A stretch of 64,000 bases of DNA from an uncultured Candidatus Saccharibacteria bacterium (GTDB taxonomy: Bacteria > Patescibacteriota > Minisyncoccia > Phycocordibacterales > UBA918). The DNA is taken from the NCBI GenBank assembly GCA_964399295.1, contig CAYNQD010000001.1, forward strand, positions 399,672 to 463,671, in the 5' to 3' direction. Shown piece after piece: positions 32,844-56,312 of this stretch. Below the pieces are notes generated by a model. It saw only the letters and a program-made list of their open reading frames with translations. It did no database searches and was not told the DNA's origin. The translations under genes were made by a program, and so were the position numbers. The number at the start of each line of letters is the position of its first letter. The stretch's first letter is position 1.

Positions 32844-32906
32844 TGGCTGCCGGACAGGGATTCGAACCGTCTCGGTCTAGAACCAAGATATGGCTTAAAA
32901 TATAAA
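32844..32906 (-). repeat. tRNA-3'-end-derived repeat copy A (T-arm-like GGTTCGAATCC + CGGCAGC acceptor-like end)
   Basis: Minus-strand reads ...TTTAAGCCATATCTTGGTTCTAGACCGAGACGGTTCGAATCCCTGTCCGGCAGCCA; abuts stop codon of 32915..35653 gene; homologous to copies at 48567, 53941, 54881. Confidence 0.7.
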
Positions 32907-32914
32907 CTTTTCTT

Positions 32915-35653
32915 TTACCACCACAATCCAGACAGTCCTGCAGCTTTCATTTGTGCGCGAGTGATAGGTCCGAAGTATCCGACAGCTGGCGAGATACCGT
33001 TTGCAGCTTGATATGCTGCGAGAGCTGATCGTGTTTGGTTAAGGAACAGGCCGGTTGCTCCAGCTGGAATTGAGTGTCCCTGTCCAATGAGAAGAGTCTG
33101 GAGAGCTACAACATCAGCACCTTCCATTCCATATTTAAGGTCTCGGACAAAAAATGCTGGTGCGGTAATTCCGAGCAGGTCTAGAATATTCTGTGGAAGA
33201 GATATACCCATACTGTGTGCTCGAAGAAGCATGTCACGATGTTGATTAACAAGGTTTTCTACTGTTTGAGTTGGTCGTTGACCTACAATGTGAGAGCTCG
33301 ATCGTCGTGTTCGTTGTGAAGGAGACACGATTTCTTCTTCAGTCGGCAAAGTGGGTTCTACTTGCGTAATGACAAAAAGCTCAGAGAAGACGACGAGCCC
33401 CAAACGAGATAGATTGTATGAACCAGAAATTCCTCCTACCAACTGGCCAAACATAGACTCCATACCTTCATCAAAATACTCATCTTCACTTTCTGACTGC
33501 CTAGTCCACGAGGTACCATTATCGAGCGAAGAATACACCACTATCCGATACCAGAGTAATTCATCGTCATATGCATCCATGCGGTTTTCTACCACAGCCG
33601 CGACTACCCCCTCACCTGTCGCTGAAGGAGCGACATATATCCACGAGTGATCTCCTGGGGCAGTACTCGTGGCCCACGATAATCCCTTATCGCTGGATAT
33701 GTACATGTTTCTGGCGAAGGCATCGATGACAAAAAATCTCTCCGCGTCTTTCGAGACCATCACTGAGAAAGGAATAACTTCTTGGTCAAGATATGAAAGT
33801 ATCGGCTCCCACGTTTCTCCATAATCATGAGAAACAATCACTACTGCCATTTCAGGATCTCCCATCATGAGCATAGGGCTCATTGCAAGCATAATTGTTG
33901 AACCATTTGCTGAGGCAGAAATTGAAGAAGGAAAAACGAACGATTCATTGGAAAGGCTGAGAGGGAGCATGTCTTCCCAATCCTCTCCTCCATTGTTCGA
34001 ATATATCACTTTGTTAAATAATGCAACATATATATGTGACAAATCACTTGATGCGGTGATACGTGAAAGATACAATGCCATAAAAGTAAGGTAGTCATCG
34101 CCAAACTCTTCCATATCATCCATTGCAATAGTTGATATTACTTGGATGTCCCAACTCTCTCCGCCGTCTACAGAACTGACAGCAATAAAATTAACTTCAT
34201 CGCCTATAAGGCTAGTGACGCCTACTGCCATTATCTTCATCCCATCTGCAGAAGACGTGACAGATGTAAGGAGTATGTCTGGAGAAGAGGTGCTGAGTTC
34301 CCAGCTCTCTCCGCCGTTGGCTGACACATATATGACAGTAGAAGGATACTCTTCCTCGCCAAGTAGTCCATGTCCTGTTGCTACTAGTCGGCTCCCGTCT
34401 GAAGATACCGAGATTGATGTCCATATATGATTTTCAAAACCTTCTAAGTGTTGCTCGAGCATTTCATATATAGAACCTTCTGGAATATCATTGTCGTCTC
34501 CAAAATCCTCTTCTATCGGCTCCTCAATGGTGGTGAAGCTCCATGAAGAACCGCTAATACCTGGGTAAGTATTGTCATCAGCATCAACAAACGCCGTATC
34601 AGGGATAACCACTAGATACTCAGTTCCATATTCAAATTCAGATATCGGACTGATTGTCACCTCATTACCGTCAATCGTAATACGATCGCTATCTATATCG
34701 AAGGACTCGAAAAGTGAATCATCTTCTGCTCGATAAATACTAATTTGTCCTGTCGATGTCGCAACGGTTGAGGTACTGAAGCTAAGAACGAGGTTGGTTG
34801 AAATAGCCACATCTTCTGCATTATCAACCGGAGAAAGTGTCGCTGAGATTGTTCCTAGTGATGCATTTGAATTTTCTGCCGCCTCCTCCTCGGTAATTGC
34901 CCGACTGTAGATCCGCACATCCTTCACATCACCCTTAAACCATCCCTGATTGTTGCTGCAGCTTGGGGCATCTATACCAGCAAATACATATACAGGATCA
35001 TCAGCTGCAGCATAGGCAGTCATCGCACTAGAAGCAACTTGCACACCATTCACATACAAGTCTAGTGTTTCTGTTTCGGGAGACCAAGTGTTGGCAATGC
35101 TATACCACTCTCCGAGCACCGCTGGCACAGAATTGACGGCTGTGACAGGAGTACCGTCCCATCCTATAGCGCGAAAATGTCCGTTCTGGATATGGAGCAT
35201 AGAAATACACCAACCCTGTCCATTTCCACCATTTGGACTGTTTGATATATGAATAATGTTCCCACTTTCACTTTCATCATTTACACGAACGGAAGCGGAT
35301 AGAGTATAGGCCTGATTGGACACGCCCATAGATTCCGTGAGAGGAGAATCGGTTCGGATGTAATCATCAACCCCATCAAAGGAAAGGCCTCCGTTTAAAA
35401 TCCAAGTTGGACCGCCATAGAGTGTACCCGGGTATCCGGTCAACGCTCCGGTTGTCCCCCCTTCTCCTTCATCAAGTGGCCAATAGAATTTCAAATCATC
35501 ACCAGCATGTGCACCAGAGACTGCGATAAAGAAAATTACCGCGAGACAAAAAGTTGTAGTAATAAAATATTTCCAGTTTTTCATTATGATTATTATTGTA
35601 TCATGACTAAATAAAATATGAACGTCATGTCCAAGTGCAAGAAATAATTGCAA
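32915..35653 (-). CDS. Large secreted surface protein: LamG/ConA-like lectin domain + BNR/Asp-box beta-propeller repeats + C-terminal peptidoglycan-binding domain
   Basis: 912 aa; N-terminal TM/signal; LamG-like YWPLDEG...FDGVDDY; six SxDxGxTW Asp-box repeats (SANGGESW, SVDGGESW, SNNGGEDW, SHDYGETW, SSDKGLSW, SLDNGTSW); C-terminal LKYGMEGADVVALQTLL...GYFGPITRAQM PG_binding_1. Confidence 0.75.
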   Translation of the reverse strand: MQLFLALGHDVHILFSHDTIIIIMKNWKYFITTTFCLAVIFFIAVSGAHAGDDLKFYWPLDEGEGGTTGALTGYPGTLYGGPTWILNGGLSFDGVDDYIRTDSPLTESMGVSNQAYTLSASVRVNDESESGNIIHISNSPNGGNGQGWCISMLHIQNGHFRAIGWDGTPVTAVNSVPAVLGEWYSIANTWSPETETLDLYVNGVQVASSAMTAYAAADDPVYVFAGIDAPSCSNNQGWFKGDVKDVRIYSRAITEEEAAENSNASLGTISATLSPVDNAEDVAISTNLVLSFSTSTVATSTGQISIYRAEDDSLFESFDIDSDRITIDGNEVTISPISEFEYGTEYLVVIPDTAFVDADDNTYPGISGSSWSFTTIEEPIEEDFGDDNDIPEGSIYEMLEQHLEGFENHIWTSISVSSDGSRLVATGHGLLGEEEYPSTVIYVSANGGESWELSTSSPDILLTSVTSSADGMKIMAVGVTSLIGDEVNFIAVSSVDGGESWDIQVISTIAMDDMEEFGDDYLTFMALYLSRITASSDLSHIYVALFNKVIYSNNGGEDWEDMLPLSLSNESFVFPSSISASANGSTIMLAMSPMLMMGDPEMAVVIVSHDYGETWEPILSYLDQEVIPFSVMVSKDAERFFVIDAFARNMYISSDKGLSWATSTAPGDHSWIYVAPSATGEGVVAAVVENRMDAYDDELLWYRIVVYSSLDNGTSWTRQSESEDEYFDEGMESMFGQLVGGISGSYNLSRLGLVVFSELFVITQVEPTLPTEEEIVSPSQRTRRSSSHIVGQRPTQTVENLVNQHRDMLLRAHSMGISLPQNILDLLGITAPAFFVRDLKYGMEGADVVALQTLLIGQGHSIPAGATGLFLNQTRSALAAYQAANGISPAVGYFGPITRAQMKAAGLSGLWW

Positions 35654-35702
35654 ACATTTCTAGTAGCATAGAGACATCGCGCAATCATTAAAAAGACGGT
35701 CC

Positions 35703-35990
35703 AGGACTCGAGTCGACTAAATGGCTTAAACTAACACTTAACTGTTCTATGAAAAATGATAGGAGTTTCGAGCCCATGACTCGTTTTTAAAATGTTTTGG
35801 AAATTATAGCGATTTTAAGAGTCTCAATAGATCTCACTACTCTGCTGACTGACTCAGTTGTGAACCCCATGAAGTGAGACCCCACAAGGGTCTTTGGGCG
35901 TTTCTTCGCTTGGTGTTTTGAGGCGTCTCAGTCTAGCTGGCCTCAAAGGGGTTTACAAACCTGACAACCCCCACGAGACCCTTTGGATAT
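35703..35990. repeat. Repeat-unit copy E (GGACTCGAGTCGACTAAATGGCTTAAA) plus a ~130-nt multi-hairpin structured segment upstream of the 912-aa gene
   Basis: Shares the GGACTCGAnnCGACTAAATGGCTTAAA unit and degenerate ATAGCGATTTTAgGAG hairpin region with modules at 53808, 54752, 56098; 35860-35985 has 3-4 consecutive perfect 6-7-bp stem-loops. Confidence 0.6.
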
Positions 35991-36004
35991 AGAACTATAT
36001 GACA

Positions 36005-36934
36005 TTATCTGAACGTCGCGGTACCACTATCAAACTTGAGGTCAAGAATAAGTTCGCCCCTTGCAGTGAAATGGTAAAGCTGTGCATTCTCGAGAAGTGC
36101 GAGAAACTCGGTTTCTTGAGATTCTGGACAAAATCTCTCGTCCATGGCAATACGCTCAAATGAGATTGAATACTCATCAGCGATATAACTGCCACTAATA
36201 TAATTGCAATCAGTTGTGGCGGAGAATCTTCCATCTTCAGTAAACGTAAGTATAAACGCATTGGGCTGATAGGGTTCAATACTGCGCCCGTCATTGTAAA
36301 GTGCTGAACTCCACACCCACTCTTTCATGGTCAGTGACATGCGCGACGGGTCGACTTCTCCTTCAAAATCCTGATCCACTACACCAAATTGCATAGTCTG
36401 TGGATCAAGTTTGAGCCAGACACTTTTACCAACTGACGGTTGTGTAGACATTGGCTCGCCGGGAGTACGGTCAGCATAATTTACGACGATAACATTTTGA
36501 TGATTAGGATTCTGACTCAGCTCGGTAGTCTGCGGTGCAATACGATCTCCAAGCAAATACGCTTCAGAGCCTATATATCCATCTCCAGTATTGAGCGCAG
36601 CGACGGTGTAATAGAAGGTGCCTGAACCGCCCGTCTCTTGTGTAAGAACGAACACAACATCTTCACGGCCGTCATTATTTAAATCTGCTATAAGTTCGTT
36701 ACCAAAGTAGCGAGTGATAATTTTGGACGCAGAGTCTGGAGCTACTTCTGTTTCGGCAACACCATCTATAAGTGTCACGGGCTCTCCGTCAATGATGTAT
36801 GTTGCATTTCTGTAATCGTCTGCGGTATCAGCTTGCTTCTCGTTGTAGATGTAGGAATTAAAGGCGAAGAAGCCTCCGACAAGAAGGACAAGAACACCTA
36901 CTGCAAGTAAAATCCATTTCACATTCATACACAT
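36005..36934 (-). CDS. Secreted two-domain protein with C-terminal META/HslJ-like (DUF306) domain
   Basis: 309 aa; N-terminal TM; C-terminal W...L...G.W.L, GCN.ISGSY and RFCPESQETEFLALLENAQLY pattern reminiscent of META domain. Confidence 0.5.
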   Translation of the reverse strand: MCMNVKWILLAVGVLVLLVGGFFAFNSYIYNEKQADTADDYRNATYIIDGEPVTLIDGVAETEVAPDSASKIITRYFGNELIADLNNDGREDVVFVLTQETGGSGTFYYTVAALNTGDGYIGSEAYLLGDRIAPQTTELSQNPNHQNVIVVNYADRTPGEPMSTQPSVGKSVWLKLDPQTMQFGVVDQDFEGEVDPSRMSLTMKEWVWSSALYNDGRSIEPYQPNAFILTFTEDGRFSATTDCNYISGSYIADEYSISFERIAMDERFCPESQETEFLALLENAQLYHFTARGELILDLKFDSGTATFR

Positions 36935-37116
36935 AAGTATAACTAATCAGCATGAATACGTGAACAAGTTGTCATTAGGTACCGAAAGGTGAATTGCCAC
37001 AAGAACTTTTTGATGTCGCACTGATGCATTTGGCACTTTTCCACAAGCCAAACGAGGTGGTGTATGTATAATGCAATTAACGGCATACAAGCCCACATAG
37101 GTGACTCCTTAAATGA

Positions 37117-37163
37117 AGGCCTACGCATTTCCCATACAACGGGACTCGTAGGCCTTTTGTGTT
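37117..37163 (+). terminator. Strong stem-loop (9-bp perfect stem AGGCCTACG/CGTAGGCCT) followed by T-run; terminator-like or element boundary structure
   Basis: Inverted repeat with nested TCCC/GGGA pairing and TTTTGTGTT tail; sits at left edge of the integrative-element-like block. Confidence 0.45.
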
Positions 37164-37217
37164 AGTCACGATTTTAACGAAAACGAAAACGCATTATGAC
37201 TAACTCCATTCATTATT

Positions 37218-38495
37218 ATGAATACACAACCACTCACATGGCGAACGGAACAGCGAAAGGTCAGCGACCTCGTACCGAACGCCAAGAACCCTCGCTCACT
37301 CTCTGCACAACAAAAAGCAGACCTTGAAGCGAGCATTACTAAGTTCAACATTGCCGAGATCATGGCTTTGAACACCGACAACACGGTGCTGGCGGGTCAC
37401 GCCAGACTTGTTGTGCTGAAGGCGCTCGGACGCTCTGATGAAATGATCGATGTTCGCATTCCTTCTCGGACATTAACAAAGGAAGAGTGCGAGGAGTACA
37501 TGCTCCGCTCGAACCGCAACACTGGCTCGTGGAATCATGAACTGCTTCGTGCTTTTGATACGTCTTTCCTTCTCTCGATCGGATTTGACGATGTCGACTT
37601 GTCGGACATCTGGGAGGACGTACTTGAAATTGAAGATGATGATTTCAAGGAAGAGGATGCGGTTGAAGAAGCCAAGGACACCGACATCAAGAACGGTGAT
37701 CGGTTTCAACTTGGAGATCACCTGCTTGCGTGTGGCGACAGCACGGACCAGACAGTCGTGAAGAATCTTGTTGGCGACAAGAAAATCGATATGGTCTATG
37801 TTGACATTCCATACAATATAAATTTGAGCTACAACAAGGGATTAGGTGGAAAATCCCACTATGGCGGTGATGTCGACGACAAGAAATCCGATACTGAATA
37901 TCGTGCATTTGTGAAGAAACTCATGGAGAACGCTCTCGCGGTCTCCGCAAAGGATTCGCACCATATCTGGTATTGCGATTCAAGCTATGTGGGCATGATG
38001 CAATCACTCTTTGCAGAAGTTGGCATCGCATACAAGCGCACCGCATTGTGGATCAAAAACGGCATCAACTGCACTCCGAAGATAGCATTTTCGAAGATGT
38101 ATGAGCCGGCCTTGTACGGAGTAACCGGACGACCATACCTTTCACCAAAGCACACGAAATTCGGCGAGGTGCTTAACAAGGAGGTTGGTATCGGTAACGC
38201 AACGATTGATGACATCACAGACATGATTGATATCTGGCTCGCAAAGCGTGATGCGGGTCAGGATTATAAACATCCAACGCAGAAGCCACTCTCGCTTCAC
38301 GAGCGACCGCTCAATCGTTGTACCAAAATCGGAGATGCGGTCTTGGATCTTTGTGGTGGTAGCGGATCTACACTCCTAGCCTGCGAACAAATGAAGCGCA
38401 AAGCGTTTTTGGTCGAACGCAGTCCAGTATTTTGTCAGGTAATCATCAACCGCTATGAAGACTCCAGTGGAAACAAAGCAGTCAAGCTCAATTAA
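37218..38495 (+). CDS. ParB-like nuclease domain fused to beta-class N6-adenine/N4-cytosine DNA methyltransferase
   Basis: 425 aa; N-terminal ParBc-like (VSDLVPNAKNPR...), then LGDHLLACGDSTD, DIPY (motif IV), HPTQKP, DLCGGSGST (motif I) in beta-class order. Confidence 0.85.
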   Translation: MNTQPLTWRTEQRKVSDLVPNAKNPRSLSAQQKADLEASITKFNIAEIMALNTDNTVLAGHARLVVLKALGRSDEMIDVRIPSRTLTKEECEEYMLRSNRNTGSWNHELLRAFDTSFLLSIGFDDVDLSDIWEDVLEIEDDDFKEEDAVEEAKDTDIKNGDRFQLGDHLLACGDSTDQTVVKNLVGDKKIDMVYVDIPYNINLSYNKGLGGKSHYGGDVDDKKSDTEYRAFVKKLMENALAVSAKDSHHIWYCDSSYVGMMQSLFAEVGIAYKRTALWIKNGINCTPKIAFSKMYEPALYGVTGRPYLSPKHTKFGEVLNKEVGIGNATIDDITDMIDIWLAKRDAGQDYKHPTQKPLSLHERPLNRCTKIGDAVLDLCGGSGSTLLACEQMKRKAFLVERSPVFCQVIINRYEDSSGNKAVKLN

Positions 38496-39252
38496 GCACG
38501 GAGATGTGGTTCGGCTTGGCGACCACATTCTCTATTGTGGCAACGCTCAGGATGTTGACCTTGCAACGCTCCTTGAGGGCAGAACTATTTCCTGTCTTGC
38601 GTGTGACCCTCCGTATTCAGTAGATTATGCGGCCAGCAAGCGTAGTATCGGCAAGATTGCAAAAGATAAAGATATCGCAAATGACGGATTCATGACAGCT
38701 GAGGAGTATGTATCGTTCACGAAGTCGTGGATCTCGCCCGCATTGCCACATCTCTCAAAGAAGAACAGCATCTACGTCTTCAACTCGGACAAGATGATCT
38801 TCGCACTTCGACAGGCATTTGTGGAATTGGATCTGAAGGTCGCTCAGCTCATTATCTGGGTGAAGTCTCAGCCAATTCTCGGACGGCTCGACTATCTCCC
38901 ACAACACGAGTTGATCCTCTACGGCTGGAAAGGTACCCACGAGTGGCGACGTGGGAAGGATAAGTCAGTGATGTTTGCGCCGAAGCCATCGCGAAGTGCA
39001 CTCCATCCAACAATGAAGCCTGTCTCGCTCATGCGTCGAATTATCCTTAACGCCACTCGAGTTGGAAGTGTTGTCTATGACCCCTTTGGTGGGAGCGGTA
39101 CCACGCTAATTGCCTGCGAACACACCAAGCGTCGATGCATCATGGTCGAGATGGATCTAGAACACTGCGAGACAATCGTAAAGCGGTGGGAAAAACTAAC
39201 TGGTCATGGCACGGAAATCATCAGATCCGAAGGAGCGGAGCAAGCGGTTTAA
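38455..39252 (+). CDS. Beta-class N6-adenine/N4-cytosine DNA methyltransferase
   Basis: 265 aa; LGDHILYCGN, DPPY, HPTMKP, DPFGGSGTT; overlaps upstream gene by 41 nt. Confidence 0.85.
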   Translation: MKTPVETKQSSSIKHGDVVRLGDHILYCGNAQDVDLATLLEGRTISCLACDPPYSVDYAASKRSIGKIAKDKDIANDGFMTAEEYVSFTKSWISPALPHLSKKNSIYVFNSDKMIFALRQAFVELDLKVAQLIIWVKSQPILGRLDYLPQHELILYGWKGTHEWRRGKDKSVMFAPKPSRSALHPTMKPVSLMRRIILNATRVGSVVYDPFGGSGTTLIACEHTKRRCIMVEMDLEHCETIVKRWEKLTGHGTEIIRSEGAEQAV

Positions 39253-39634
39253 AACAAAACTGCTTGAACACCTCAAGGACTCCGGCAACGTCAGCTACGC
39301 CTGCAAGCGAGCAGGTATTTCTCGCGAAACCTACTACAAGTGGCGCAGGAGCAAAGTATTCGCTGAGGAAGCTGATGTGGCAATCGACCTTGGTAAAGAG
39401 TTTGTGAATGACTTGGCGCACACGCAACTCATTCAAAACATTCAGCAGGGACACATGGGTGCGGTGAAGTTTCAGCTGGCTAGCTGTCACATAGACTACC
39501 AAGCGAGAAAACCATGGCCTCGTGAACTACCAACTGCTCCGCCTCCAGTAACCGAGATTCATATCCATCCAGCCGAACCGATGGAAGTGCGAGAACAACA
39601 AGCGAAGAAGCGAGCGGAGGCTAAAGATCACTAG
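39206..39634 (+). CDS. HTH DNA-binding protein, phage terminase small-subunit-like
   Basis: 142 aa; SYACKRAGISRETYYKWRR helix-turn-helix typical of terminase small subunit/transposase-like HTH. Confidence 0.45.
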   Translation: MARKSSDPKERSKRFKTKLLEHLKDSGNVSYACKRAGISRETYYKWRRSKVFAEEADVAIDLGKEFVNDLAHTQLIQNIQQGHMGAVKFQLASCHIDYQARKPWPRELPTAPPPVTEIHIHPAEPMEVREQQAKKRAEAKDH

Positions 39635-40364: not shown

Positions 40365-40674
40365 TTTTCCCTACTAGGATTTAGTTGTGCGGAACCTTCA
40401 GGTAATCAAAAGGCTCCCAGCCATCGCGATCCAACCTTTCGGCCAGACCCATACCTGTTTCCAGATATGACCTAGTAGAGTGACTCTGACTGGGAGTCCT
40501 TTGATCTCTACTAGGTTTTTGCGCCATACCTTAGGAAACCCTAAGGGTTAGGCGACTATATTCAATTGTCGTACGAGTACATAATACCAAAATCGGTATC
40601 ATTTGGCACTTTAGCTTACATTCGGAGCTTTGCGAAGTAGCTGTTACCAACACATTCACGTATACTCTATAACC

Positions 40675-41256: not shown

Positions 41257-41275
41257 GCCAAAAATGAAACACTGC

Positions 41276-48417: not shown

Positions 48418-48459
48418 AGTATAAAAATGATTGGCTGATAATATATTTAGTTTAACAGA

Positions 48460-48490: not shown

Positions 48491-48566
48491 TCTGGTTACC
48501 GGACTCACCGGGTATGCAATGTGCGGAATAGTACCTATGCGTCTCAGTCACTTGACTTAGCATATG

Positions 48567-48632
48567 GCTGCTGCCGCAGAAGGACTCGAACCGTCTCGGT
48601 CTAGAACCAAAATATAGCTTAAAATATAGACT
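48567..48632 (-). repeat. tRNA-3'-end-derived repeat copy B
   Basis: Minus strand ...GGTTCTAGACCGAGACGGTTCGAGTCCTTCTGCGGCAGCAGC; abuts stop of 48636..52406 gene, same position as copy A relative to its paralog. Confidence 0.7.
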
Positions 48633-48635
48633 TTT

Positions 48636-51600
48636 TTACCACCACAACCCAGAAAGCCCTGCCTCTTTCATCTGTGCACGAGTAATTGGCCCGAAGTAGC
48701 CACCCCGTGGCGCGATACCGTTCGCAACCTGATACGCATCAAGTGCATACTGAGTTTGAGTACCAAAGTAACCTGTTGCCCCAGCCGGTATAGAGTACCC
48801 TTGTCCAATAAGAAGCGTCTGGAGTCGACGAACATCTTCCCCGTCCATACCATATTCAAGATCACGAACAGATAGTGATCCATTCTCAACACCAAGCATG
48901 ATAAGAATATTTTGTGGTAATACAATACCAGCTTCATGTGCCCGGATAAGTAAATCTCGATGCTGATCAACTATTTTTTGCAGGGCTTGTTCAGGGCTAT
49001 CGTACTTACATAACTCCTGTTTGTGTGCTGAAAAATACTCATAGTTAGAAGCGTTAGTATCTTTGCAGCCAAAGTGTGTACCACCAGTTGTCCGACTACC
49101 TGTAGGTTCTTCTGTTTCAGGACTAGTGCCAAACAATCCAAAAATAGAGAATGATGGAGTCGTACAAGAAATAGAGTTTGCATCAGTATCTAGTACACAG
49201 TCATTGAGTGCTATCCATTGCCCTCCGGTGTAGTGATAGAGCCAGAGTGTTGATTCATCGATACCCGAGACTTCATCTTCAGTGTATTCGTAATCAATTG
49301 TTACTTCAGTATCAAACGAATCGAAAATAGTATCACCATTTACAATTGCTTTTACATCAAATACCGTAGCGCCAATTTCATTTGGTGCCGAGCTTGGACG
49401 TCCAAGTGCGGTGAGTACTGCAGTGTTTGGTACTGCCTTTACCTGGATAACAATTGTTGAGTCAACAGGAGCATCTGCTGTTACTGAAAAAGTCTTTGCA
49501 TTTTCAGTCACATTGGTCGTGCCAGTGTTACCAGCATATATTGTGGTTGAAGTAGCTGTTGTTGGTGTAGCATTACCTGTACAACCAGTCGTGGTAAATG
49601 TACTGTCTGTTGACGTAGCAGTATTGGACGCACCATCAGTTGAAACAACGGCATAATGATACATAGTACAAGACAACAAACCAGAAAGATTTACTACATG
49701 CTCAGTCACGCGTGGTGATGTATTGATTTCAGCAGTAGTGGTTCCGTACAAATTAGTTAAACCATAAGATACCTTTGAAGAAGCATTCTCATCAGTAGTC
49801 CAAGAGATTGTAGCTCCTGAATCAGAAATTGATGATGCGACAACTTCACTAACTATAGGATCATCAGCATCTTCTTCCGGCTCCTCAGAACCGGTCCCAA
49901 GACTGAACATTTCTCCAGGAGTAAGGGCTCGATTATAAACTCGCACATCGTCAATATAGCCATCGAATGGTCCTGAACTTCCGCCATCTTGTACCCCAAT
50001 ACCAATAGAGAAATTATCTCCCGTACCGTAATTATCAGTAGGACTATCTGAAGATATGCCTACTTGGTCGCCATCAACATACAAGATCACATTTTCACCA
50101 TCACCAAGACAGGTAATATGGTGCCAAACATTGAAAAATGTTTCAGGATCATAAGTCCAATTCACCTCACCATGAGGTGTCCAGCACCTTAGTTGGTTGT
50201 CAGTGGTGAAAAAGAATTCAAATACATTATTTGCTCCAAACCAACCCTCGTTATCTGCAGCGGAACGTGGATATGCCCAACCAGCTAGAGTAAATTCAGG
50301 ATAATTGTTGAGAGAGAGTGAAGTGGTGATTCCGTCATTTACACCATCAAAATTCAAGCTATGAGAATCTGTAAACTCCACATCTGGAGGTGTAGTCGTG
50401 GAATATGAGGCACCGCTAATAGTTCCATTTTTACGATTAACAGTAGAATCAAGTGCCGTACTTCCTGATCCTTCGTCAAATCTCCAGTAAGCTACGAGAG
50501 AGTCATCCCAAGTCTGCCCAGTCGTTACAGCAACGGTTGCTTCAGCAGAACTTGGAGAAGGGTCTATATATCCGTCAGCTGGAACGGCATTTATACTATG
50601 ACTCAAAGTGGTACTAGCATTCACAGCCGAACCAACTGTTGCTTCAACAGTGACGGTAGCCACCTCCCCATCATCTAAACTAACTACAAATGAATCAATA
50701 TCAGATTCATCTCCAGAACCTGAATCAGCACCAGTCGAGGTGTAGCTCCAAATCACATCAGTGAATCCTGTATGTCCGATAACCATATCGTTGGTCACTG
50801 TTACCTCACCAGCATCATTTGGACCATTGTTAGTGACCGTATACGTATATTCTAAAGTGTCGCCATATCGATATGTACCATCTGGAGCATCAGTGACAGA
50901 AACGGCAATATCTGTCGGTAGAGACACTTGCAGATTGTCTATCGCATGAATGTTTGTTGATCCGCCTGTACCAGCTGTAAAGCCAAGTTTAAAGAAGTCT
51001 GGCGGCACGTCGTCATAAGCATAATCATCAATCACTGTGTGCCATGTTGCTCCATCGTCCCAACTCATCTCAACCCGAATTACCGCACCAGAGTCATTTG
51101 GTGATATAGATATTCGAGCCCTTCTCCACCCTCCATCAATTGTTTGACTGATTGGTGAATCCGATACTCTTGTGTGAGTTAAGTAGTTATATCCACTAGT
51201 TCCATTTCCAGACCCGCGTAAAGTGACGTTATCTGGAGCAGAACTTCCAATCCCAGTTTTTCCACCACCTGCTACAGGAAAACCTCCATACTCATCAAAT
51301 CCAACTCCAAGATATGCATGAGGTACTCCGGGAGTACTGCCACTAAGCGCATATCCAAGCGAAGAACCAAAGGCACCAGCTGCGATATTACCAACATTTA
51401 CCAAATCTCCATCCACCAAAAAGAATGCGAGACCATCTGCACCGGTTCCACCACCAGAGTAGTAGTCGAACTCAACAACAATACCGTTATCAGAAGAAAA
51501 AGCGGTGTCATAATATCCTAGTCCAGCTTGACTAGTAGCGGCAGTAGTGAGACGCAAGGTTTCTTCTGAATCTACCACAGCTCCCCAGGACGCACTACTA

Positions 51601-52406
51601 CCAAGAATCCATTTAACTGGTTTAGCTTCATCAAAATTTTCAGAAATAGGAAACACTCCAGAAAGCTCAGAAATTTCACCTGGAGTTAGGGCCCGTGAAT
51701 ATACTCGTACATCATCAATTTTGCCTTGGAAATACCGCTGCAAACTATTTTCATAGTTTGAGGCTCCGATAGGAAGAGATACATCGCCTAGATTAATATC
51801 CATATCGAGACCAGTGATAGTGTCTCGTGCAACTCCATCATAGTAGAGCGTGCCGTTACCCTGATCTATTACTATAGAAATGTTATGCCATTCGCTATCT
51901 GCATAACTCACTGTGTAATTTAGGTCTTTACGAGCACCATCAGCTCCACGAAATAAACCTTGAATTTCGCCTGAAACAAGATATATTTCGGCCAGAGGAG
52001 TACCCGGTTTACTGCTATCACGAGCTGAAAATATTCCTTTACCTGACTGATTTGTACCAGTCTTAAACCATAGCGACCACGTAAAAGAATCCCCGTCTGA
52101 ATACACAGGGCTGTACGTAGTTGCAACAACGTCGTCTGTACCATCAAAATCTAAACTGCGTGGATTAGTAAAACTTACATCAGGAACATCACTCGAAGGC
52201 TGTGGTTTGTCGTTTGCACCCGTAGCTCCACTTGGTGTTCCGTGACGATCACCTCCTGATGAATCAATAACCGAACTTACTCCATCACTCATGGTCTCAT
52301 CCAATTTCCAATATCCGACTAAATCATCCGACGCAGAGATTGTTGGAACTATATAAAATAATCCTACTGCCAGTACTGTTGATGTAATAAAAAAATATCG
52401 CTTCAT
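48636..52406 (-). CDS. Giant secreted surface protein: two LamG/ConA-like lectin domains, FN3/Ig-like modules, C-terminal peptidoglycan-binding domain
   Basis: 1256 aa; signal peptide; YWKLDETMSDG...FDGTDDV and YWRFDEGSGSTALDS...FDGVNDG LamG-like modules; C-terminal LEYGMDGEDVRRLQTLL...GYFGPITRAQMKEAGLSGLWW nearly identical to C-terminus of the 912-aa paralog. Confidence 0.75.
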   Translation of the reverse strand: MKRYFFITSTVLAVGLFYIVPTISASDDLVGYWKLDETMSDGVSSVIDSSGGDRHGTPSGATGANDKPQPSSDVPDVSFTNPRSLDFDGTDDVVATTYSPVYSDGDSFTWSLWFKTGTNQSGKGIFSARDSSKPGTPLAEIYLVSGEIQGLFRGADGARKDLNYTVSYADSEWHNISIVIDQGNGTLYYDGVARDTITGLDMDINLGDVSLPIGASNYENSLQRYFQGKIDDVRVYSRALTPGEISELSGVFPISENFDEAKPVKWILGSSASWGAVVDSEETLRLTTAATSQAGLGYYDTAFSSDNGIVVEFDYYSGGGTGADGLAFFLVDGDLVNVGNIAAGAFGSSLGYALSGSTPGVPHAYLGVGFDEYGGFPVAGGGKTGIGSSAPDNVTLRGSGNGTSGYNYLTHTRVSDSPISQTIDGGWRRARISISPNDSGAVIRVEMSWDDGATWHTVIDDYAYDDVPPDFFKLGFTAGTGGSTNIHAIDNLQVSLPTDIAVSVTDAPDGTYRYGDTLEYTYTVTNNGPNDAGEVTVTNDMVIGHTGFTDVIWSYTSTGADSGSGDESDIDSFVVSLDDGEVATVTVEATVGSAVNASTTLSHSINAVPADGYIDPSPSSAEATVAVTTGQTWDDSLVAYWRFDEGSGSTALDSTVNRKNGTISGASYSTTTPPDVEFTDSHSLNFDGVNDGITTSLSLNNYPEFTLAGWAYPRSAADNEGWFGANNVFEFFFTTDNQLRCWTPHGEVNWTYDPETFFNVWHHITCLGDGENVILYVDGDQVGISSDSPTDNYGTGDNFSIGIGVQDGGSSGPFDGYIDDVRVYNRALTPGEMFSLGTGSEEPEEDADDPIVSEVVASSISDSGATISWTTDENASSKVSYGLTNLYGTTTAEINTSPRVTEHVVNLSGLLSCTMYHYAVVSTDGASNTATSTDSTFTTTGCTGNATPTTATSTTIYAGNTGTTNVTENAKTFSVTADAPVDSTIVIQVKAVPNTAVLTALGRPSSAPNEIGATVFDVKAIVNGDTIFDSFDTEVTIDYEYTEDEVSGIDESTLWLYHYTGGQWIALNDCVLDTDANSISCTTPSFSIFGLFGTSPETEEPTGSRTTGGTHFGCKDTNASNYEYFSAHKQELCKYDSPEQALQKIVDQHRDLLIRAHEAGIVLPQNILIMLGVENGSLSVRDLEYGMDGEDVRRLQTLLIGQGYSIPAGATGYFGTQTQYALDAYQVANGIAPRGGYFGPITRAQMKEAGLSGLWW

Positions 52407-52522
52407 TGCGAGATAATTATATCAACTTCAAATTAATATTGATAGAGAGAGCAAGTAATACACCTATGGGCGGACTACGTATGCACAGATGAATCAAATG
52501 TCCACCTTTTTATAAACCTGAA

Positions 52523-52558
52523 TAGGATTCGGACTTAACGCCAAAAAGTGGCTTAAAA
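52523..52558. repeat. Degenerate copy of the repeat unit (AGGATTCGGACTTAACGCCAAAAAGTGGCTTAAAAATAT)
   Basis: Similarity to AGGATTCGAACCG...AAAATATGGCTTAA unit; lies upstream of the 1256-aa gene. Confidence 0.45.
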
Positions 52559-52601
52559 ATATAAATAGGAGTTACCACCGTCTGGAGCAATCTCTGAATT
52601 T

Positions 52602-52868
52602 CTATTCGCTCTCTTCTAGATAAGTCTTCTCAGGAAGTACGGCGTCAGGATTATCTTCTCGTGCCTTTCTATACACCTCTTCAATCGCGTTCTTGCACTG
52701 ATTGAGATCATCTACTCGAAAAAGAAACATCACCTCTTCAGGATTATCTGCATTTACCCAAAGGTGTTCGAGATACATACCTTGAGCAACATGTGATTCT
52801 TTATCTGCTTCCAGCTGCTTTTTTACAGCTTCAATTGGAGCGGTTATTTTATTAAGTATATGTGCCAT
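52602..52868 (-). CDS. Small hypothetical protein
   Basis: 88-aa ORF, acidic; no motif. Confidence 0.4.
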   Translation of the reverse strand: MAHILNKITAPIEAVKKQLEADKESHVAQGMYLEHLWVNADNPEEVMFLFRVDDLNQCKNAIEEVYRKAREDNPDAVLPEKTYLEESE

Positions 52869-52902
52869 ATAGATATTTAATTACTAATTAAACCCAATTC
52901 AA

Positions 52903-53331
52903 CTATCCTGCCAACACTTTTATCCTATCCAAAGCCAAAGGAACTCTTGTATTCATTGTTTCTTCTTGAGATGGTGGAATGTCCATAGCTATCTTCAGAG
53001 TAGTAACACCATCAGTTTCTGTTAATGAGTAACTCTCAGTACCACCTGTCCATTCTTTTTCTCGTTCTTGTTTTCCACTTTCTTTAGTGTTAGCACTATG
53101 TCTGAATTGTACAAACTCACCTGGAATGAATTTCTCAACTAAACTTGTTACGCCATATCCACCTACAGAAGAAATGAATTGTATCTCGTTTCCTTCTTTC
53201 AACTCACCAACCATATATGTTCCTTCATCAATAAGGTTTGCCCAATCACGAAAGGTGGTATCCTCCCAAAGGATGCTTCAAACTTTTTCACGAGGTGCTT
53301 GTATATCAATTGAAAATTCTTTTTGTTGCAT
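52903..53331 (-). pseudogene. SRPBCC/AHSA1-family protein gene interrupted by in-frame TGA at codon 18 (conserved Trp position)
   Basis: ATG at 53331: MQQKEFSIDIQAPREKV-[TGA at 53278-53280]-SILWEDTTFRDWANLIDEG...; SRPBCC N-terminal motif is normally I-A-P-x-E-x-V-W; TGA is an authentic stop elsewhere in window, and TGG to TGA is a single transition. Confidence 0.55.
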
Positions 53332-53346
53332 AAAATTCTTAGTCTA

Positions 53347-53775
53347 CTAAAACACAAGGTCACTAACTTCAACTGAAGGATATTCTTCTATATACATCTC
53401 ACCCCTTGCACCCATATATGCCACTTTTCTTTTTAAAAAATCCACGTCGTACCCCCACGCTCCAGCATCCCATATTGCCTTCAAGAATTCTGGGAATGTA
53501 CTTTCTCTTGCCTGATCGGTACGAATTGCTTTAATAATTGCTTCCTCGTCAAATCTGGAAACCTCTGTCATACCAGTAACAAGTGGAGTACCTTGATTGA
53601 TAATGTACTCACCATCATCCATCAAATACATACTCGTGACCGCAGGTAACGACCAAATGTTGTGCTTTACGCCTGCCTTACGAAGACACTCTGCAAGGAA
53701 TGGAAAACCACCGACCTTTGGTCGGTTTGCCATTGCGTATTCCATAGCTTTTTGGAGTTTCTCTTTTGGATTCAT
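53347..53775 (-). CDS. Hypothetical protein
   Basis: 142-aa ORF (MNPKEKLQKAMEYAMANRPKVGGFPFLAECLRKAGV...), no RBS seen. Confidence 0.5.
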   Translation of the reverse strand: MNPKEKLQKAMEYAMANRPKVGGFPFLAECLRKAGVKHNIWSLPAVTSMYLMDDGEYIINQGTPLVTGMTEVSRFDEEAIIKAIRTDQARESTFPEFLKAIWDAGAWGYDVDFLKRKVAYMGARGEMYIEEYPSVEVSDLVF

Positions 53776-53807
53776 AGATTTATTATATTACTTTTTGATT
53801 GACGAAC

Positions 53808-54005
53808 CTAGGACTCGAACCGACTAAATGGCTTTAAATATGAATATTCTAAATTCAAGAAAAATCACTAAAGTTCGTGCCCATGACTCGTTCTTAAAAT
53901 GCTTTGGAAAATATGGCAATTTTAGGAGACACGGTCTGTCTCACATGATTGCTGCCGCGCTAGGATTCGAACCGTCTCGGTCTAGAACCAAAATATGGCT
54001 TAATG
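53808..54005 (-). repeat. Composite repeat module F: unit U (GGACTCGAACCGACTAAATGGCTTTAAA) + spacer with GGAGACACGGTCTGTCTCAC hairpin + tRNA-3'-end-like copy C
   Basis: Aligns along its length with modules at 54752-54940 and 56098-56312 (the last carries a genuine tRNA-Gln in place of copy C). Confidence 0.7.
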
Positions 54006-54076: not shown

Positions 54077-54679
54077 TTAACATATCTCATTAAATCTCTT
54101 ACGGAGACTAATGAAAAATACGGTATGCACGCCAAGTCCAATACTGTACGCAATCAACAATTCAAACAATCCAGCATATCCGTTTATCGTATAAAAATAA
54201 AGAATATATGCGCTTAGTGGCAAATTAAGCAAAACCGAAGAGATTGAGCCAGGAGAGTAAGCTCCAGTGGTAATATGGGTAGTTAGGTGCCAAGCCCCGT
54301 TAATTAAGAAAATAGAAGCAATTCCCAGTGTAAGCCATAAATAGTTAGTGCCGATTACAGCCAATAAACCCATAATTACAATACCGGCGGTAGCATCAGT
54401 AAAGAAAGCATTCTTTGCTGAAAGAGGTTTGTCTAAATCACTACTCCGAAAAAAGCTACCGTTAATCCATTTAATAAATCCACCTGGCCATATATATTCT
54501 TCAAACGTATGAAAGCCTCCAACAATAACCAAAAACCAGATAACCCAGTCAGGATTTGTCATACGTGACGGTTCAAGTAAGAGCAAGGCAACCAAAACTA
54601 TCGCAACAATAGTTACAATCCCATTAAGTAATTGGGTGTAGAGTGTATACTTCTTGATTTCGTTTGTTTGATTTTCCAT
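54077..54679 (-). CDS. HXXEE-domain membrane protein
   Basis: GGFHTFEEYIWPGGF HXXEE motif, multiple TM helices; ORF-track N-terminal 46 aa (54680-54817) translate the repeat module, so Met at 54679 (MENQTNEIKKY) is the likely start. Confidence 0.65.
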   Translation of the reverse strand: MENQTNEIKKYTLYTQLLNGIVTIVAIVLVALLLLEPSRMTNPDWVIWFLVIVGGFHTFEEYIWPGGFIKWINGSFFRSSDLDKPLSAKNAFFTDATAGIVIMGLLAVIGTNYLWLTLGIASIFLINGAWHLTTHITTGAYSPGSISSVLLNLPLSAYILYFYTINGYAGLFELLIAYSIGLGVHTVFFISLRKRFNEIC

Positions 54680-54751
54680 TTGTTGATCACCTAAATTATA
54701 GCACTGAGTCTTAGTTTTATATGCTAATACGAATTGATGAGAAAATGCGTT

Positions 54752-54940
54752 TAGGACTCGAACTACAGAAACGGCTTTAAATAAGACTTTTGCAAATTCA
54801 GCGAAGTTCGAGTCCATGACTCATTCTAAATATGCATTGCAAAATATAGCGATTTTAGGAGACACGGTCTGTCTCACATGGCTGCTGCCGCAAAAGGATT
54901 CGAACCGTCTCGGTCTAGAACTAAAATAGGGCTTAAATTA
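54752..54940 (-). repeat. Composite repeat module G (unit U + hairpin spacer + tRNA-3'-end-like copy D)
   Basis: TTAGGACTCGAACTACAGAAACGGCTTTAAA...ATATAGCGATTTTAGGAGACACGGTCTGTCTCACATGGCTGCTGCCGCAAAAGGATTCGAACCGTCTCGGTCTAGAAC. Confidence 0.7.
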
Positions 54941-54979
54941 TATATTTTTATCTTCAAACCAGTTCGAGTCTCTGACAGG

Positions 54980-55447
54980 TCACTTGTGCCTTCTCTCAGC
55001 CATCTTGATAAAAAGCTCCTTGGTCTCATCAGAAAAACCATTTTTATAATCACCCAGAAACAGATCTCTCACCTCAAGCTGATACACCTTCAAACTTGGC
55101 AACCTCTCTATCTCAACCCATACTGGCTCAAACACCTGTTCTCCATTTCTCATTTGTTCTACTTCGATAGAATCAGGGTGCAATTGTGGTTCTCCTGAAA
55201 CATACTCACAAAGATAGAAAAAATTCTCTTCGCCCGTATCCCAAGTTATATGATAGAGAGACTTTTTCGGTACGACAGTAATCATTGTCTCTTCATCTAT
55301 TTCTCGAACCGCTGCCTGTTCAGGCGTTTCCCCTTCTTCGACACCTCCGCCAGGAAACACCCAATATTCATCACCCTTATTGAAGCGATGTATGAGAAGC
55401 ACTTTTCCATCTTTGATAACTATTCCTGCTGAGCGGTTTCGATTCAT
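54980..55447 (-). CDS. NUDIX hydrolase
   Basis: 155 aa; Nudix box GGGVEEGETPEQAAVREIDEETMI. Confidence 0.88.
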   Translation of the reverse strand: MNRNRSAGIVIKDGKVLLIHRFNKGDEYWVFPGGGVEEGETPEQAAVREIDEETMITVVPKKSLYHITWDTGEENFFYLCEYVSGEPQLHPDSIEVEQMRNGEQVFEPVWVEIERLPSLKVYQLEVRDLFLGDYKNGFSDETKELFIKMAERRHK

Positions 55448-55448
55448 C

Positions 55449-56060
55449 TTAGTTCAGAGATTTAATGATTTTAACAATCTCAGGAAACTCAGAGATCTTG
55501 AAATGTCCGTTCTTGCTTTCATAGATGATAATTTCCGAGCTCTTTAATTTCTTTCTGTATTTTTCAGCGTGAGAAACAGGAACAGAAGGATCGTCTTTTG
55601 AAAACATGAGATATGTTTTCTTTGAATTCTTTTCAATCAGAGAAAGATCGCTGCCGAGCTTGAAACCGCCCACCAAATCTTCTCCTTCAACCGTATTGTC
55701 ATACGGGGGACAAATCATAAATGTTGCTTTTATCTTCTTTGGAAATTTGTTCTCAGAAAGATATTTCGCCAAAAAGATGCCGCCGAGCGACGAGCCAATA
55801 AGAATGATATCGTTTCGAAAATACGGAAAATGCCTTTCAAAGAAAATCTTCCAGTCAGCATATTTTGCATCATCCTGCAAAGGCATTCGGGGTCGAATAA
55901 TGTCGAATTCTTTTCCGAGCTTATTTTCCAAATACTCATCGCTCCATCTCTCCTTCTTTTCTACAGAAACCGTTCTGTTGTTGAGCCAGTCAATATAATC
56001 CTTCTTGTTCTTGAAGGTCATTCCGCCGTGAATTACGAATATTTGAGTTTTGCTTTTCAT
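55449..56060 (-). CDS. Alpha/beta-hydrolase-fold serine hydrolase (RBBP9/YdeN-like)
   Basis: 203 aa; nucleophile elbow GSSLGG; abuts NUDIX gene (operon). Confidence 0.7.
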   Translation of the reverse strand: MKSKTQIFVIHGGMTFKNKKDYIDWLNNRTVSVEKKERWSDEYLENKLGKEFDIIRPRMPLQDDAKYADWKIFFERHFPYFRNDIILIGSSLGGIFLAKYLSENKFPKKIKATFMICPPYDNTVEGEDLVGGFKLGSDLSLIEKNSKKTYLMFSKDDPSVPVSHAEKYRKKLKSSEIIIYESKNGHFKISEFPEIVKIIKSLN

Positions 56061-56097
56061 TATTTTTATTTTATCACCTTCAGCCCAAATGACCCAT

Positions 56098-56240
56098 CTT
56101 GGACTCGAACCGGTCGAAGGGCTTAAAATAAAGCTTTTCCAAATTTAACGAAAATCACAAAATTTCGAGCCCATGACTCGTTCAAAATATATGTTGCTAA
56201 ATATAGCGATTTTAGGAGACACGGTCTGTCTCACATGAGT
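56098..56240 (-). repeat. Repeat module H (unit U + hairpin spacer) immediately 3' of tRNA-Gln
   Basis: TTGGACTCGAACCGGTCGAAGGGCTTAAAA...ATATAGCGATTTTAGGAGACACGGTCTGTCTCACATGAG. Confidence 0.7.
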
Positions 56241-56241
56241 G

Positions 56242-56312
56242 CTGCCGATCAGGGACTCGAACCCCAATAGACGGTACCAGAAACCGTAGTCCTACCATTA
56301 GACGAATCGGCA
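56242..56312 (-). tRNA. tRNA-Gln (anticodon CUG)
   Basis: Minus strand TGCCGAT-T-C-GTCT-AATGGTA-GGAC-T-ACGGT-TTCTGGT-ACCGT-CTAT-TGGGG-TTCGAGT-CCCTG-ATCGGCA-G: 7-bp acceptor with U1-A72 and G73 (GlnRS identity elements), U8, D-loop GG, anticodon loop UU-CUG-GU, T-loop GTTCGAGTC; CCA not encoded. Confidence 0.8.

Follow-up and report, generated by a model that had tools for sequence, protein, structure and literature searches.

The staphylococcal cassette chromosome SCCmec and the pseudo-SCC elements of staphylococci, served by the recombinases CcrAB and CcrC, are inserted serially at the 3' end of one conserved gene that is left intact; a short repeat of the target end bounds every unit, and many of the units, having no recombinase of their own, are believed to be mobilized in trans. 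We describe here an array resembling them in a 64-kb stretch of DNA (contig CAYNQD010000001.1, hereafter the window, by which we mean this whole stretch) from an uncultured, ultra-small bacterium of the Candidate Phyla Radiation (CPR). The array occupies 32.8-56.3 kb, is read on the minus strand and comprises five or six gene units at the 3' end of a tRNA-Gln(CUG) gene, each bounded by a ~200-nt junction that combines a tRNA-3'-end-like element (A) with a second module (M). It also shares with SCCmec a recombinase built of Resolvase, Recombinase and Zn-ribbon domains. The differences are these: 1) the target is rlmH in SCCmec and a tRNA gene here, in a CPR/Paceibacteria host; 2) the junction is an 18-bp repeat in SCCmec vs. 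a structured ~200-nt A+M here, and the units here are much smaller, the smallest being a single gene of 0.74 kb; 3) the recombinases are only distantly related, and that of the window is a candidate enzyme.

Other mobile systems invite comparison as well. The tycheposon islands of Prochlorococcus (bioRxiv 10.1101/2020.12.28.424599) likewise combine a streamlined host with repeated integration beside a specific tRNA, partial tRNA copies between the elements and a variability that peaks beside the tRNA. Tycheposons carry tyrosine recombinases and replication modules, whereas no tyrosine recombinase was found here and most units are bare cargo; in place of their partial tRNAs, the array has an element-borne mimic that is extended 5' by conserved sequence of its own and is paired with a 145-nt module. 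Lacking a tyrosine recombinase and carrying hydrolase, membrane, surface, glycosyltransferase and defence-type genes, the array falls outside what defines a tycheposon. Integrons are similar in being directional arrays of small, mostly promoterless, co-oriented cassettes at a fixed site, with junctions conserved in architecture and variable in sequence and a recombinase acting in trans on recombinase-less cassettes, as is proposed here; the array differs in having no IntI, no attC consensus, a tRNA anchor and a serine recombinase as the candidate enzyme. Tandems of cis-mobilizable and integrative mobilizable elements (CIME/IME, e.g. ICESt1/CIME of streptococci) also line up attachment-site-flanked elements devoid of a recombination module with an autonomous element, but they rely on tyrosine integrases, have much larger units and lack a composite 200-nt junction conserved across families. 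By analogy, the closest functional counterparts appear to be SCC/pseudo-SCC composite islands and tycheposon-type tRNA islands, with the likeness to integrons seemingly superficial. The literature on CPR in connection with integrons, tRNA-Gln islands or serine recombinases, which we covered incompletely, gave no description of a tRNA-Gln cassette array or of this recombinase family in CPR bacteria.

The feature is real and not a product of chance, is comparatively well supported and, to judge from its sequence, appears to be a variant of tRNA-anchored integrative arrays. We document below its architecture, its recurrence, the turnover and horizontal transfer of its cassettes, the position of its junctions relative to the tRNA and the linkage of a recombinase family to tRNA-Gln. 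As to its origin, we give an even chance to an SCCmec-like history, in which serine-recombinase elements and non-autonomous cassettes would have accumulated serially at the 3' end of tRNA-Gln. A preliminary description of this tract had proposed serial site-specific insertion at a tRNA 3' end or an integron-like cassette array; comparison with other genomes supports the former and not the latter.

tRNA-Gln and the junction repeats

ARAGORN and Rfam (tRNA, 50 bits) agree on exactly one tRNA gene in the whole window, Gln-CUG at 56241-56312, minus strand, in accord with the preliminary description. It lies intact at one end of the tract, and its acceptor stem as read from the sequence (UGCCGAU/AUCGGCA) pairs perfectly. 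The pattern GGTTCGARTCC-N5-CGGCAGCA, corresponding to the last 24 nt of the tRNA, has five matches in the window, all on the minus strand (32845-32868, 48569-48592, 53950-53973, 54883-54906 and the tRNA itself at 56240-56263), where shuffled sequences lead one to expect none; its core GTTCGARTCC is matched nine times vs. 0.17 expected. This search placed the four copies outside the tRNA within a few bases of where they had first been reported, and showed them to reach ~40 nt further 5' than had been recognized. We therefore define A, from its four copies, as an element of ~64 nt with the sequence TTTAAGCC.TAT.TTGGTTCTAGACCGAGACGGTTCGARTCC-N5-CGGCAGC, in which the 22-mer GTTCTAGACCGAGACGGTTCGA is invariant. 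The A copies lie 10-40 nt past the stop codons of the NUDIX, HXXEE, 1256-aa and 912-aa genes, are 76-85% identical in pairwise comparison, and resemble the tRNA in their last 23 nt only. A cluster of tRNA genes or pseudogenes was rejected as a description of the tract, since both ARAGORN and Rfam recognize a single tRNA and ARAGORN called none of the A copies.

The M module (~145 nt) is likewise present in four copies, following the tRNA, following A at 54.9 and 53.9 kb, and standing alone at 35.7 kb. Its M1 half consists of a hairpin region with GAGACAGACCGTGTCTC, then TAAAATCGCTATATTT and then a "mid" motif, GAACGAGTCATGGGCTCGAA, which is an imperfect palindrome around a 7-nt spacer; its M2 half consists of an AT-rich stretch followed by TTTAAAGCC-N8-GGTTCGAGTCC. 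M carries a conserved long-range stem (mid::B), in which one change is compensatory and the loop varies in length. The flank said earlier to be shared by three of the repeats is thus real, at ~145 nt rather than ~110 nt, and follows the tRNA and A copies in the minus-strand direction. Two further unit copies had been noted, and they turned out differently: the one at 35.7 kb is a complete M without a preceding A (nhmmer E = 1e-37), and the one at 52.5 kb is only a degenerate trace of M2 that matches weakly (E ~ 1e-3 when 874 nt were searched). Each junction contains the 9-mer GAMYGWGWC three times, and the recombinase element described below has it near either end; these places account for 12 of its 13 matches in the window, but this post-hoc count is circular, the pattern having been derived from the same sites, and can serve as a lead only.

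Is A a worn copy of the tRNA next to it? It lacks a 5' acceptor strand, its anticodon-arm-like part is separated from its T-loop by too few bases, and its N5 bases neither pair nor covary with the invariant GAGACGG that occupies the 5' T-stem positions. The acceptor stems of true tRNA-Gln genes are perfectly paired, lineage-specific and compensated, with 3' strands ATCGGCA, TCCGGCA, TCCCGCA and TCGGGCA. In these genomes, the corresponding bases of the A copies are (T/C)GCGGCA, a match to none of the 11 tRNA-Gln genes seen. Across genomes, A copies are closer to one another than to any local tRNA. Because its acceptor-like bases fit no local tRNA, we regard A as an element-borne mimic of a tRNA 3' end that travels with the cassettes; the repeats, first taken for decayed copies of the local tRNA end, instead form a conserved, element-borne family of sites.

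Layout of the array

From the tRNA outward, the units and their boundaries are as follows.

56241-56312, minus: tRNA-Gln(CUG), anchor of the array, with a putative attB-like (bacterial attachment) site at its 3' end (ARAGORN, Rfam)
56096-56240, minus: M copy 1, directly after the tRNA discriminator base, with hairpin, "mid" and TTTAAGCC-N8-GGTTCGAGTCC (nhmmer E = 5e-43)
55449-56060, minus: cassette 1 cargo, alpha/beta (Ser) hydrolase (Pfam)
54980-55447, minus: cassette 1 cargo, NUDIX hydrolase (Pfam); cassette 1 spans 54980-56060
54881-54944, minus: A closing cassette 1 (nhmmer E = 4e-22)
54750-54882, minus: M copy 2, left end of cassette 2 (nhmmer E = 1e-38)
54077-54682, minus: cassette 2 cargo, HXXEE-motif membrane protein (Pfam PF13787), 97% identical in L021
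53948-54012, minus: A closing cassette 2 (nhmmer E = 3e-22)
53807-53949, minus: M copy 3, left end of cassette 3 (nhmmer E = 4e-43)
48636-53775, minus: cassette 3 cargo, with a DUF1398 protein (53347-53775), two small open reading frames, the M2-like remnant (~52520-52600) and the 1256-aa protein (Pfam)
48636-52406, minus: 1256-aa surface protein with a PG_binding_1 C-terminus (Pfam)
48567-48631, minus: A closing cassette 3 (nhmmer E = 2e-22); the serine-recombinase element begins right after it
35842-48566, minus: unit 4, large-serine-recombinase element of 12.7 kb (Pfam; ends compared with those of other elements)
35700-35838, minus: M copy 4, with a type-3 hairpin variant, left end of cassette 5 (nhmmer E = 1e-37)
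32915-35653, minus: cassette 5 cargo, 912-aa surface protein with Laminin_G_3, BNR and PG_binding_1 (Pfam)
32844-32907, minus: terminal A, distal end of the array (nhmmer E = 5e-22), with unrelated DNA beyond

Accessory genes thus fill the tract between tRNA-Gln and the gene of a metallo-beta-lactamase (MBL)-fold hydrolase. That cargo blocks are separated by repeats, as was first proposed, is borne out; the outermost block, drawn then as a single one, is in fact two units, the 12.7-kb recombinase element and the 912-aa cassette. Nor is the recombinase/methyltransferase element plain cargo; a unit of the array in its own right, it encodes the sole plausible recombinase. The listed reading frame of the HXXEE gene (54077-54817) begins at an ATG within M, and the true start is likely near 54682. 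Cassette 3, with its internal M2-like remnant, may be a fusion of two cassettes. The 912-aa and 1256-aa proteins have paralogous C-termini, and the 3' ends of their genes (32913-33156 and 48634-48877; 244 nt, 73% identical) run straight into A. An exact-match look-up of the alpha/beta hydrolase protein found nothing.

Recurrence and turnover of cassettes

We compared the window with other contigs or loci, numbered L001-L043. An invariant 20-mer of the A core, TCTAGACCGAGACGGTTCGA, is found in contigs of seven GTDB species representatives, all of them CPR (Yonath-, Kaiser- and Taylorbacteria, Paceibacterota and two contigs labelled Saccharibacteria), and in 15 metagenome contigs. It is absent from the viral contigs of IMG/VR, and a viral origin was rejected; two matches to the "mid" pattern (L008, L009) are chance hits without A, M or tRNA. 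Profile searches and ARAGORN revealed the same layout in ~20 contigs of diverse Paceibacteria, where a tRNA-Gln (CUG or UUG) is followed by M, by cargo of 0.74-7 kb and by A, and often by another M or M1 with further cargo, all on one strand; this holds wherever the contig is long enough. The tRNA-Gln lies beside dnaX and a His-phosphatase gene in the window and in L003, L004, L006 and L030, and beside CTP synthase/FtsEX in L019. M averages 80% identity across genomes. Cargo elsewhere includes a 7-kb glycosyltransferase cluster (L019), reverse transcriptase, radical-SAM plus kinase-like protein, GNAT-ASCH, HNH, surface protein and NUDIX genes. Some cargo is on the opposite strand, namely GNAT-ASCH in L004 and L006, reverse transcriptase in L003 and the radical SAM gene in L010. 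Two ends of window cassettes recur together with their A: the 3' end of the NUDIX gene in L007 (80% nucleotide identity), and the PG_binding_1 C-terminus in L005 and L017, with a fragment in L003.

Individual cassettes have moved independently of their hosts. In L021, the HXXEE cassette (97% identical) lies directly beside that genome's own, different tRNA-Gln, and the alpha/beta hydrolase-NUDIX cassette that separates them in the window is absent; the M2 half of window M copy 2 is 87% identical to the M preceding the HXXEE gene of L021. The GNAT-ASCH cassette is ~85-90% identical in nucleotide sequence among L002, L004 and L006, where DnaX is only ~50% identical, and this identity stops at the end of A. 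The sequences of L012 and L023 are 100% identical over 1.28 kb, as far as GGTTCGAATCCT in A, and diverge thereafter. Altogether, cassettes common to genomes whose DnaX proteins are ~50% identical show 85-100% nucleotide identity; M1 clusters by genome and M2 tracks the cassette. Units of the array thus vary in presence or absence and have been transferred horizontally. Relatives do not keep the same blocks in conserved order, nor are the A copies called as tRNAs, so that neither observation by which the preliminary description would have abandoned its own proposal was made. Within one population, three samples showed an identical distal arrangement.

Assemblies of near-identical strains (Logan, SRR167979xx; L025-L029, L043) yielded contigs ending in tRNA-Gln or in the first 33 nt of M, and the contigs from the other side end at the terminal A. 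Such breaks are expected in a repeated, variable region, and their positions imply that the array is systematically missing from, or fragmented in, ordinary assemblies.

A different arrangement was seen at L030 (Nomurabacteria GCA_020632175.1; 10700-11150 and 13026-15372), which has the same dnaX/His-phosphatase/tRNA-Gln locus without A or M. Several 5' and 3' tRNA-Gln fragments surround the tRNA, one with a 30-nt insert, and a 40-nt repeat of the tRNA 3' half, 98% identical, starts at the anticodon loop and has CTA in place of the anticodon CTG. Beyond lie about ten single-gene units, three of whose junctions contain a different 85-nt repeat. This pattern suggests that other lineages own different junction families at the same hotspot.

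The serine recombinase and its element

The only recombinase family that recurs in the window and the compared loci is that of the large serine recombinases. No tyrosine recombinase was detected by Pfam in the 64-kb window and ~40 loci, nor by jackhmmer with an approximate XerD seed, a search of moderate sensitivity, among the 553 open reading frames of the window and loci; a positive control was found in the unrelated L008. A tyrosine integrase hidden within large cargo was likewise rejected, the 7-kb cargo of L019 being the glycosyltransferase cluster and the others reverse transcriptase, radical SAM, GNAT-ASCH and HNH genes. The features of unit 4 are the following.

44948-46240, plus (opposite to the array): large serine recombinase gene (Pfam Resolvase PF00239, Recombinase PF07508, Zn_ribbon_recom PF13408)
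48539-48566: left-end motif CATATGCTAAGTCAAGTGACTGAGACGC
48445-48535, minus: candidate leader RNA with terminator
35923-35936: A-core-like CTAGACTGAGACGC
35842-35868: degenerate tRNA-3'-like GGGGTTCACAACTGAGTCAGTCAGCAG, followed by the M of the next cassette
Gene content of the unit: PhnB-like, DUF2200, FAD monooxygenase, the recombinase, four DNA methyltransferases, HNH nuclease, META-domain protein; LOOT RNA
LOOT RNA (Rfam), all minus: window 40428-40554; L032 7432-7559; L034 5991-6117; L036 8669-8783

The recombinase has the N-terminal ARKS motif with the catalytic serine, and its best relative in the PDB, the SPbeta YokA/SprA integrase, is distant (E = 3e-14). It has >8000 homologues at E <= 1e-30, the best 120 of which are 78-90% identical and span Nomura-, Staskawicz-, Parcu- and Paceibacterota and Minisyncoccales, in genomes whose core proteins are only ~50-60% identical. 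As for the cassettes, such conservation across CPR lineages reads as a signature of recent horizontal spread.

Five independent loci with homologues were examined (L032, L034/35, L036/37, L038 and L039). In three of these (L032, L034/35, L036/37), tRNA-Gln lies 0.1-2.5 kb past the recombinase stop codon on the opposite strand, the relative orientation being that of the window; L038 adjoins a degenerate A, and L039 has only the acceptor-like CCCCCCAGC. Directly after ..CAGC in all five loci, and after A at 48.6 kb, comes CAnCATATGCTAAGTCArGTGACTGAG..GC, which aligns well with the start of M1. Towards their right ends, the window element (at 35.93 kb) and that of L036 carry CTAGACyGAGACGC, which aligns with the A core but scores weakly in nhmmer. 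The 12.7-kb element occupies one slot of the array, and its ends, which resemble M and A, suggest the same construction as in the small cassettes. In L007, a more distant homologue with 61% identity is encoded downstream of an A; in L003, a fragment of a recombinase gene comes after A+M1.

RNA elements and reverse transcriptases accompany this family of elements. The orphan LOOT RNA (RF03000) scores 77-87 bits at the four sites listed, vs. a gathering score of 46; it is present in the window element and in three of the five other serine-recombinase elements, always on the tRNA strand and 1-4.5 kb from the recombinase start. Its recurrent position makes LOOT look like a regular component of these elements. 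The leader-like candidate at 48445-48535 is also found in L002, L003, L004, L012, L032 and L034, where it lies at the left end, in recombinase elements as well as in some cassettes. It opens with a single-stranded stretch, TATTCCG.A.ATTGCATACC, continues with a small hairpin (GAG loop, covarying stem) and TAACCAGA, and closes with an intrinsic terminator of 11 covarying pairs, upstream of the PhnB-like and DUF2200 genes. No Rfam family matched the leader, A or M at E <= 1, a match of the leader to Thr_leader being merely to its terminator. Genes for a reverse transcriptase and bAvd, the accessory protein of diversity-generating retroelements, lie close to the recombinase in L032 (5918-7960) and L038 (12245-13625), and the first gene of the cassette in L003 (1951-2997) encodes a reverse transcriptase.

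Insertion at the 3' end of the tRNA gene

In 10 of 10 arrays, M begins right after the discriminator base of an intact native tRNA. At the distal end, unrelated DNA follows directly after the CGGCAGC of the terminal A (window at 32.8 kb, L001, L005, L007, L011, L023 and L024). Acceptor variants of the host, CCGCAGC in L004 and L010 and GGGCAGC in L006, are not copied into A, which reads CGGCAGC in those genomes. Together, the start of M, the ends of terminal A copies and the uncopied acceptor variants place the crossover on or immediately beside ..GCAGC|A, where the tRNA gene reaches its 3' end, and we surmise that the exact point of exchange is there. Three other positions for a single crossover were rejected: the T-loop, which would import foreign acceptor bases into the tRNA; the "core" of the M1 hairpin, which predicts an M1 after terminal A copies that is not observed; and "mid", which conflicts with some junction.

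We postulate the following course of events. With units reading M, cargo, A on the minus strand, a circular form would carry A|M, and this joint of A to M in the free circle would be the attachment site (attP). In imitating the T-loop and the acceptor 3' strand of tRNA-Gln (GGTTCGARTCC-N5-CGGCAGC), A would present the same recombinase half-site in the tRNA and at every junction. Insertion by site-specific recombination at or next to ..GCAGC|A would leave the tRNA intact and push older units outward, and each insertion would bring a new copy of the site, with A distal and M proximal, so that arrays could grow and be reshuffled. The recombinase of unit 4 would insert its own element and, in trans, the recombinase-less cassettes; this mobilization in trans is suggested by elements of the same recombinase family at the same tRNA-Gln site elsewhere, with ends like M and A. 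Any two junctions might later recombine, with deletion, transfer or swapping of units, and homologous exchange between the conserved ~200-nt junctions would add to the shuffling. We infer that recombination at the junctions is site-specific; that the serine recombinase at 44948-46240 catalyses the movement of units is, in our view, about an even bet.

Several observations weigh against this SCCmec-like course: 1) 23 nt of the terminal A in L001 are an exact copy of the host tRNA end, the identity between L012 and L023 switches at the T-loop/N5 border, and that between the window and L021 switches inside M, just before "mid", three non-uniform breakpoints for which one fixed crossover does not suffice without extra homologous exchange; 2) no excised circle or empty site was seen in the contigs examined, those of near-identical strains breaking in the tRNA or M; 3) most A/M loci, of ~8-14 kb each, contain no recombinase gene; 4) A/M is found much less widely than the recombinase family, so that their co-residence could reflect a shared hotspot only; 5) the right ends of recombinase elements share with A a core of only ~14-25 nt, with weak nhmmer scores; and 6) the sites of large serine recombinases are normally simple and 40-50 bp long, a size that does not account for the rest of M with its long-range stem. 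For the first of these points, we surmise that the non-uniform breakpoints stem from secondary exchange between near-identical copies of the junction.

Alternative explanations

The alternative that fares best, and which we still regard as unlikely, dispenses with a dedicated recombinase. Here A and M would be functional non-coding elements (terminator/promoter or RNA processing) serving as homology arms for RecA-dependent swaps with DNA that has been taken up, in the manner of minimal mobile elements or flexible islands. The breakpoints, which vary between cassette pairs and fall within conserved blocks, would be natural under such swaps, as would an M1 that looks homogenized per genome, and DprA is encoded nearby in near-identical strains. 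A role in expression would agree with the co-orientation of most cargo genes with the tRNA, the T-rich run after "mid" and the long-range stem of M with its compensatory change and loop-length variants. However, the cargo found on the opposite strand in L003, L004, L006 and L010 implies that A and M are not obligatory expression signals, a sigma-70 promoter scan came out at chance, and no Rfam family matches. Moreover, homologous recombination does not create a copy of the tRNA 3' end at every junction, and it leaves the anchoring at tRNA-Gln in two different genomic contexts unexplained. M as a promoter or terminator in its own right was also rejected, with the sigma-70 scan at shuffle level and just a weak terminator-like call at "mid".

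Only slightly less likely, in our estimate, is the same architecture driven by a tyrosine integrase that is encoded elsewhere, with the cassettes as integrase-less units of the CIME or satellite type and the recombinase element as an unrelated lodger at the hotspot. Tyrosine integrases classically target the 3' ends of tRNA genes, integrating at the T-loop or the 3' end, and this choice of target is shared by the array. The perfect 23-nt direct repeat of the tRNA end in L001 and the 40-nt, 98% identical repeat from the anticodon loop in L030 fit such an enzyme; so do an A+M of ~200 nt, typical of an attP with arms, and "mid" as an imperfect palindrome with a 7-nt spacer. Against it stand the absence of a tyrosine recombinase from the window, the ~40 loci and their 553 open reading frames, and the serine-recombinase elements, which have ends resembling those of the cassettes and themselves sit at tRNA-Gln.

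An integron-like system, with the mid-to-B stem-loop of M as a single-strand attC, an enzyme of the IntI type and the tRNA end as attI, would account for short, mostly single-gene, co-oriented cassettes and for a ~14-bp stem with a 7-50-nt loop and AAC...GTT at the positions of the R''/R' boxes. We consider it very improbable. This option, raised in the preliminary description, finds neither an IntI or other tyrosine recombinase beside any of the ~20 arrays nor an attC consensus, CTCGAAC/GTTCGAG having two mismatches per box to RYYYAAC/GTTRRRY; in addition, the large extra junction module (A + M1) has no integron counterpart, and terminal units end in A alone. It is hardly credible that A copies are tRNA pseudogenes or tRNA-like punctuation for processing mRNA 3' ends in a long transcript from the tRNA, a notion to which their place 10-40 nt after stop codons, their T-loop- and acceptor-like sequence and the anticodon-arm-like CTTGG-TTCTAGA-CCGAG lend some colour, given that ARAGORN and Rfam (E <= 1) call no A copy, that the 5' acceptor strand, covariation of N5 and sufficient bases before the T-loop are all missing, and that the units are horizontally mobile.

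Implications for gene exchange in CPR

CPR/Patescibacteria have genomes of ~0.6-1 Mb with few recognized mobile elements, and their gene exchange is poorly understood. The distinctive traits of the SCCmec-like array considered here are very small recombinase-less units, a conserved 200-nt tRNA-mimicking junction found across families and a probable serine-recombinase driver. A compact cassette platform of this kind, common to several candidate families and carrying, in the window, surface proteins, defence-type genes and small hydrolases, would offer a testable mechanism for the turnover of accessory genes in CPR. We tentatively go one step further, and with less confidence than for the SCCmec-like history, in speculating that Paceibacteria possess an integron-like gene-capture platform, run by a highly conserved, horizontally spreading serine recombinase that would insert its own 10-13-kb elements and recombinase-less, often single-gene cassettes at the 3' end of tRNA-Gln. 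If so, the recombinase would recognize the tRNA-mimicking half-site of the cassettes, and the arrays would be the main trade route for surface, defence and small-metabolism genes across family-level distances. A cassette platform would also make the A/M motifs a marker by which metagenomes could be searched for genes acquired recently; its serine recombinase, a natural enzyme of an uncultured lineage with defined att-like sites, might find use in genetic tools for CPR, and the orphan LOOT RNA would gain a genomic home. Should only the conservative reading hold, the locus would still be a clean tRNA-anchored island of unusually small units.

Other features of the window

The gene set of the window is of the Patescibacteria/CPR type, with giant surface proteins ending in PG_binding_1 and the core genes dnaX, seryl-tRNA synthetase (SerRS), Dus and a penicillin-binding protein (Pfam). 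At 16167-18445 on the plus strand is a second, unrelated mobile/restriction-modification module, in which an IS1595-family transposase (16167-17081) overlaps or precedes a Dam-type methyltransferase and a PD-(D/E)XK nuclease. A perfect palindrome of 21+21 nt, ACATAAAATAAAAGCATCCTG/CAGGATGCTTTTATTTTATGT, lies at 31027-31068 in the gap after the gene of a 1094-aa protein and is probably a bidirectional terminator.

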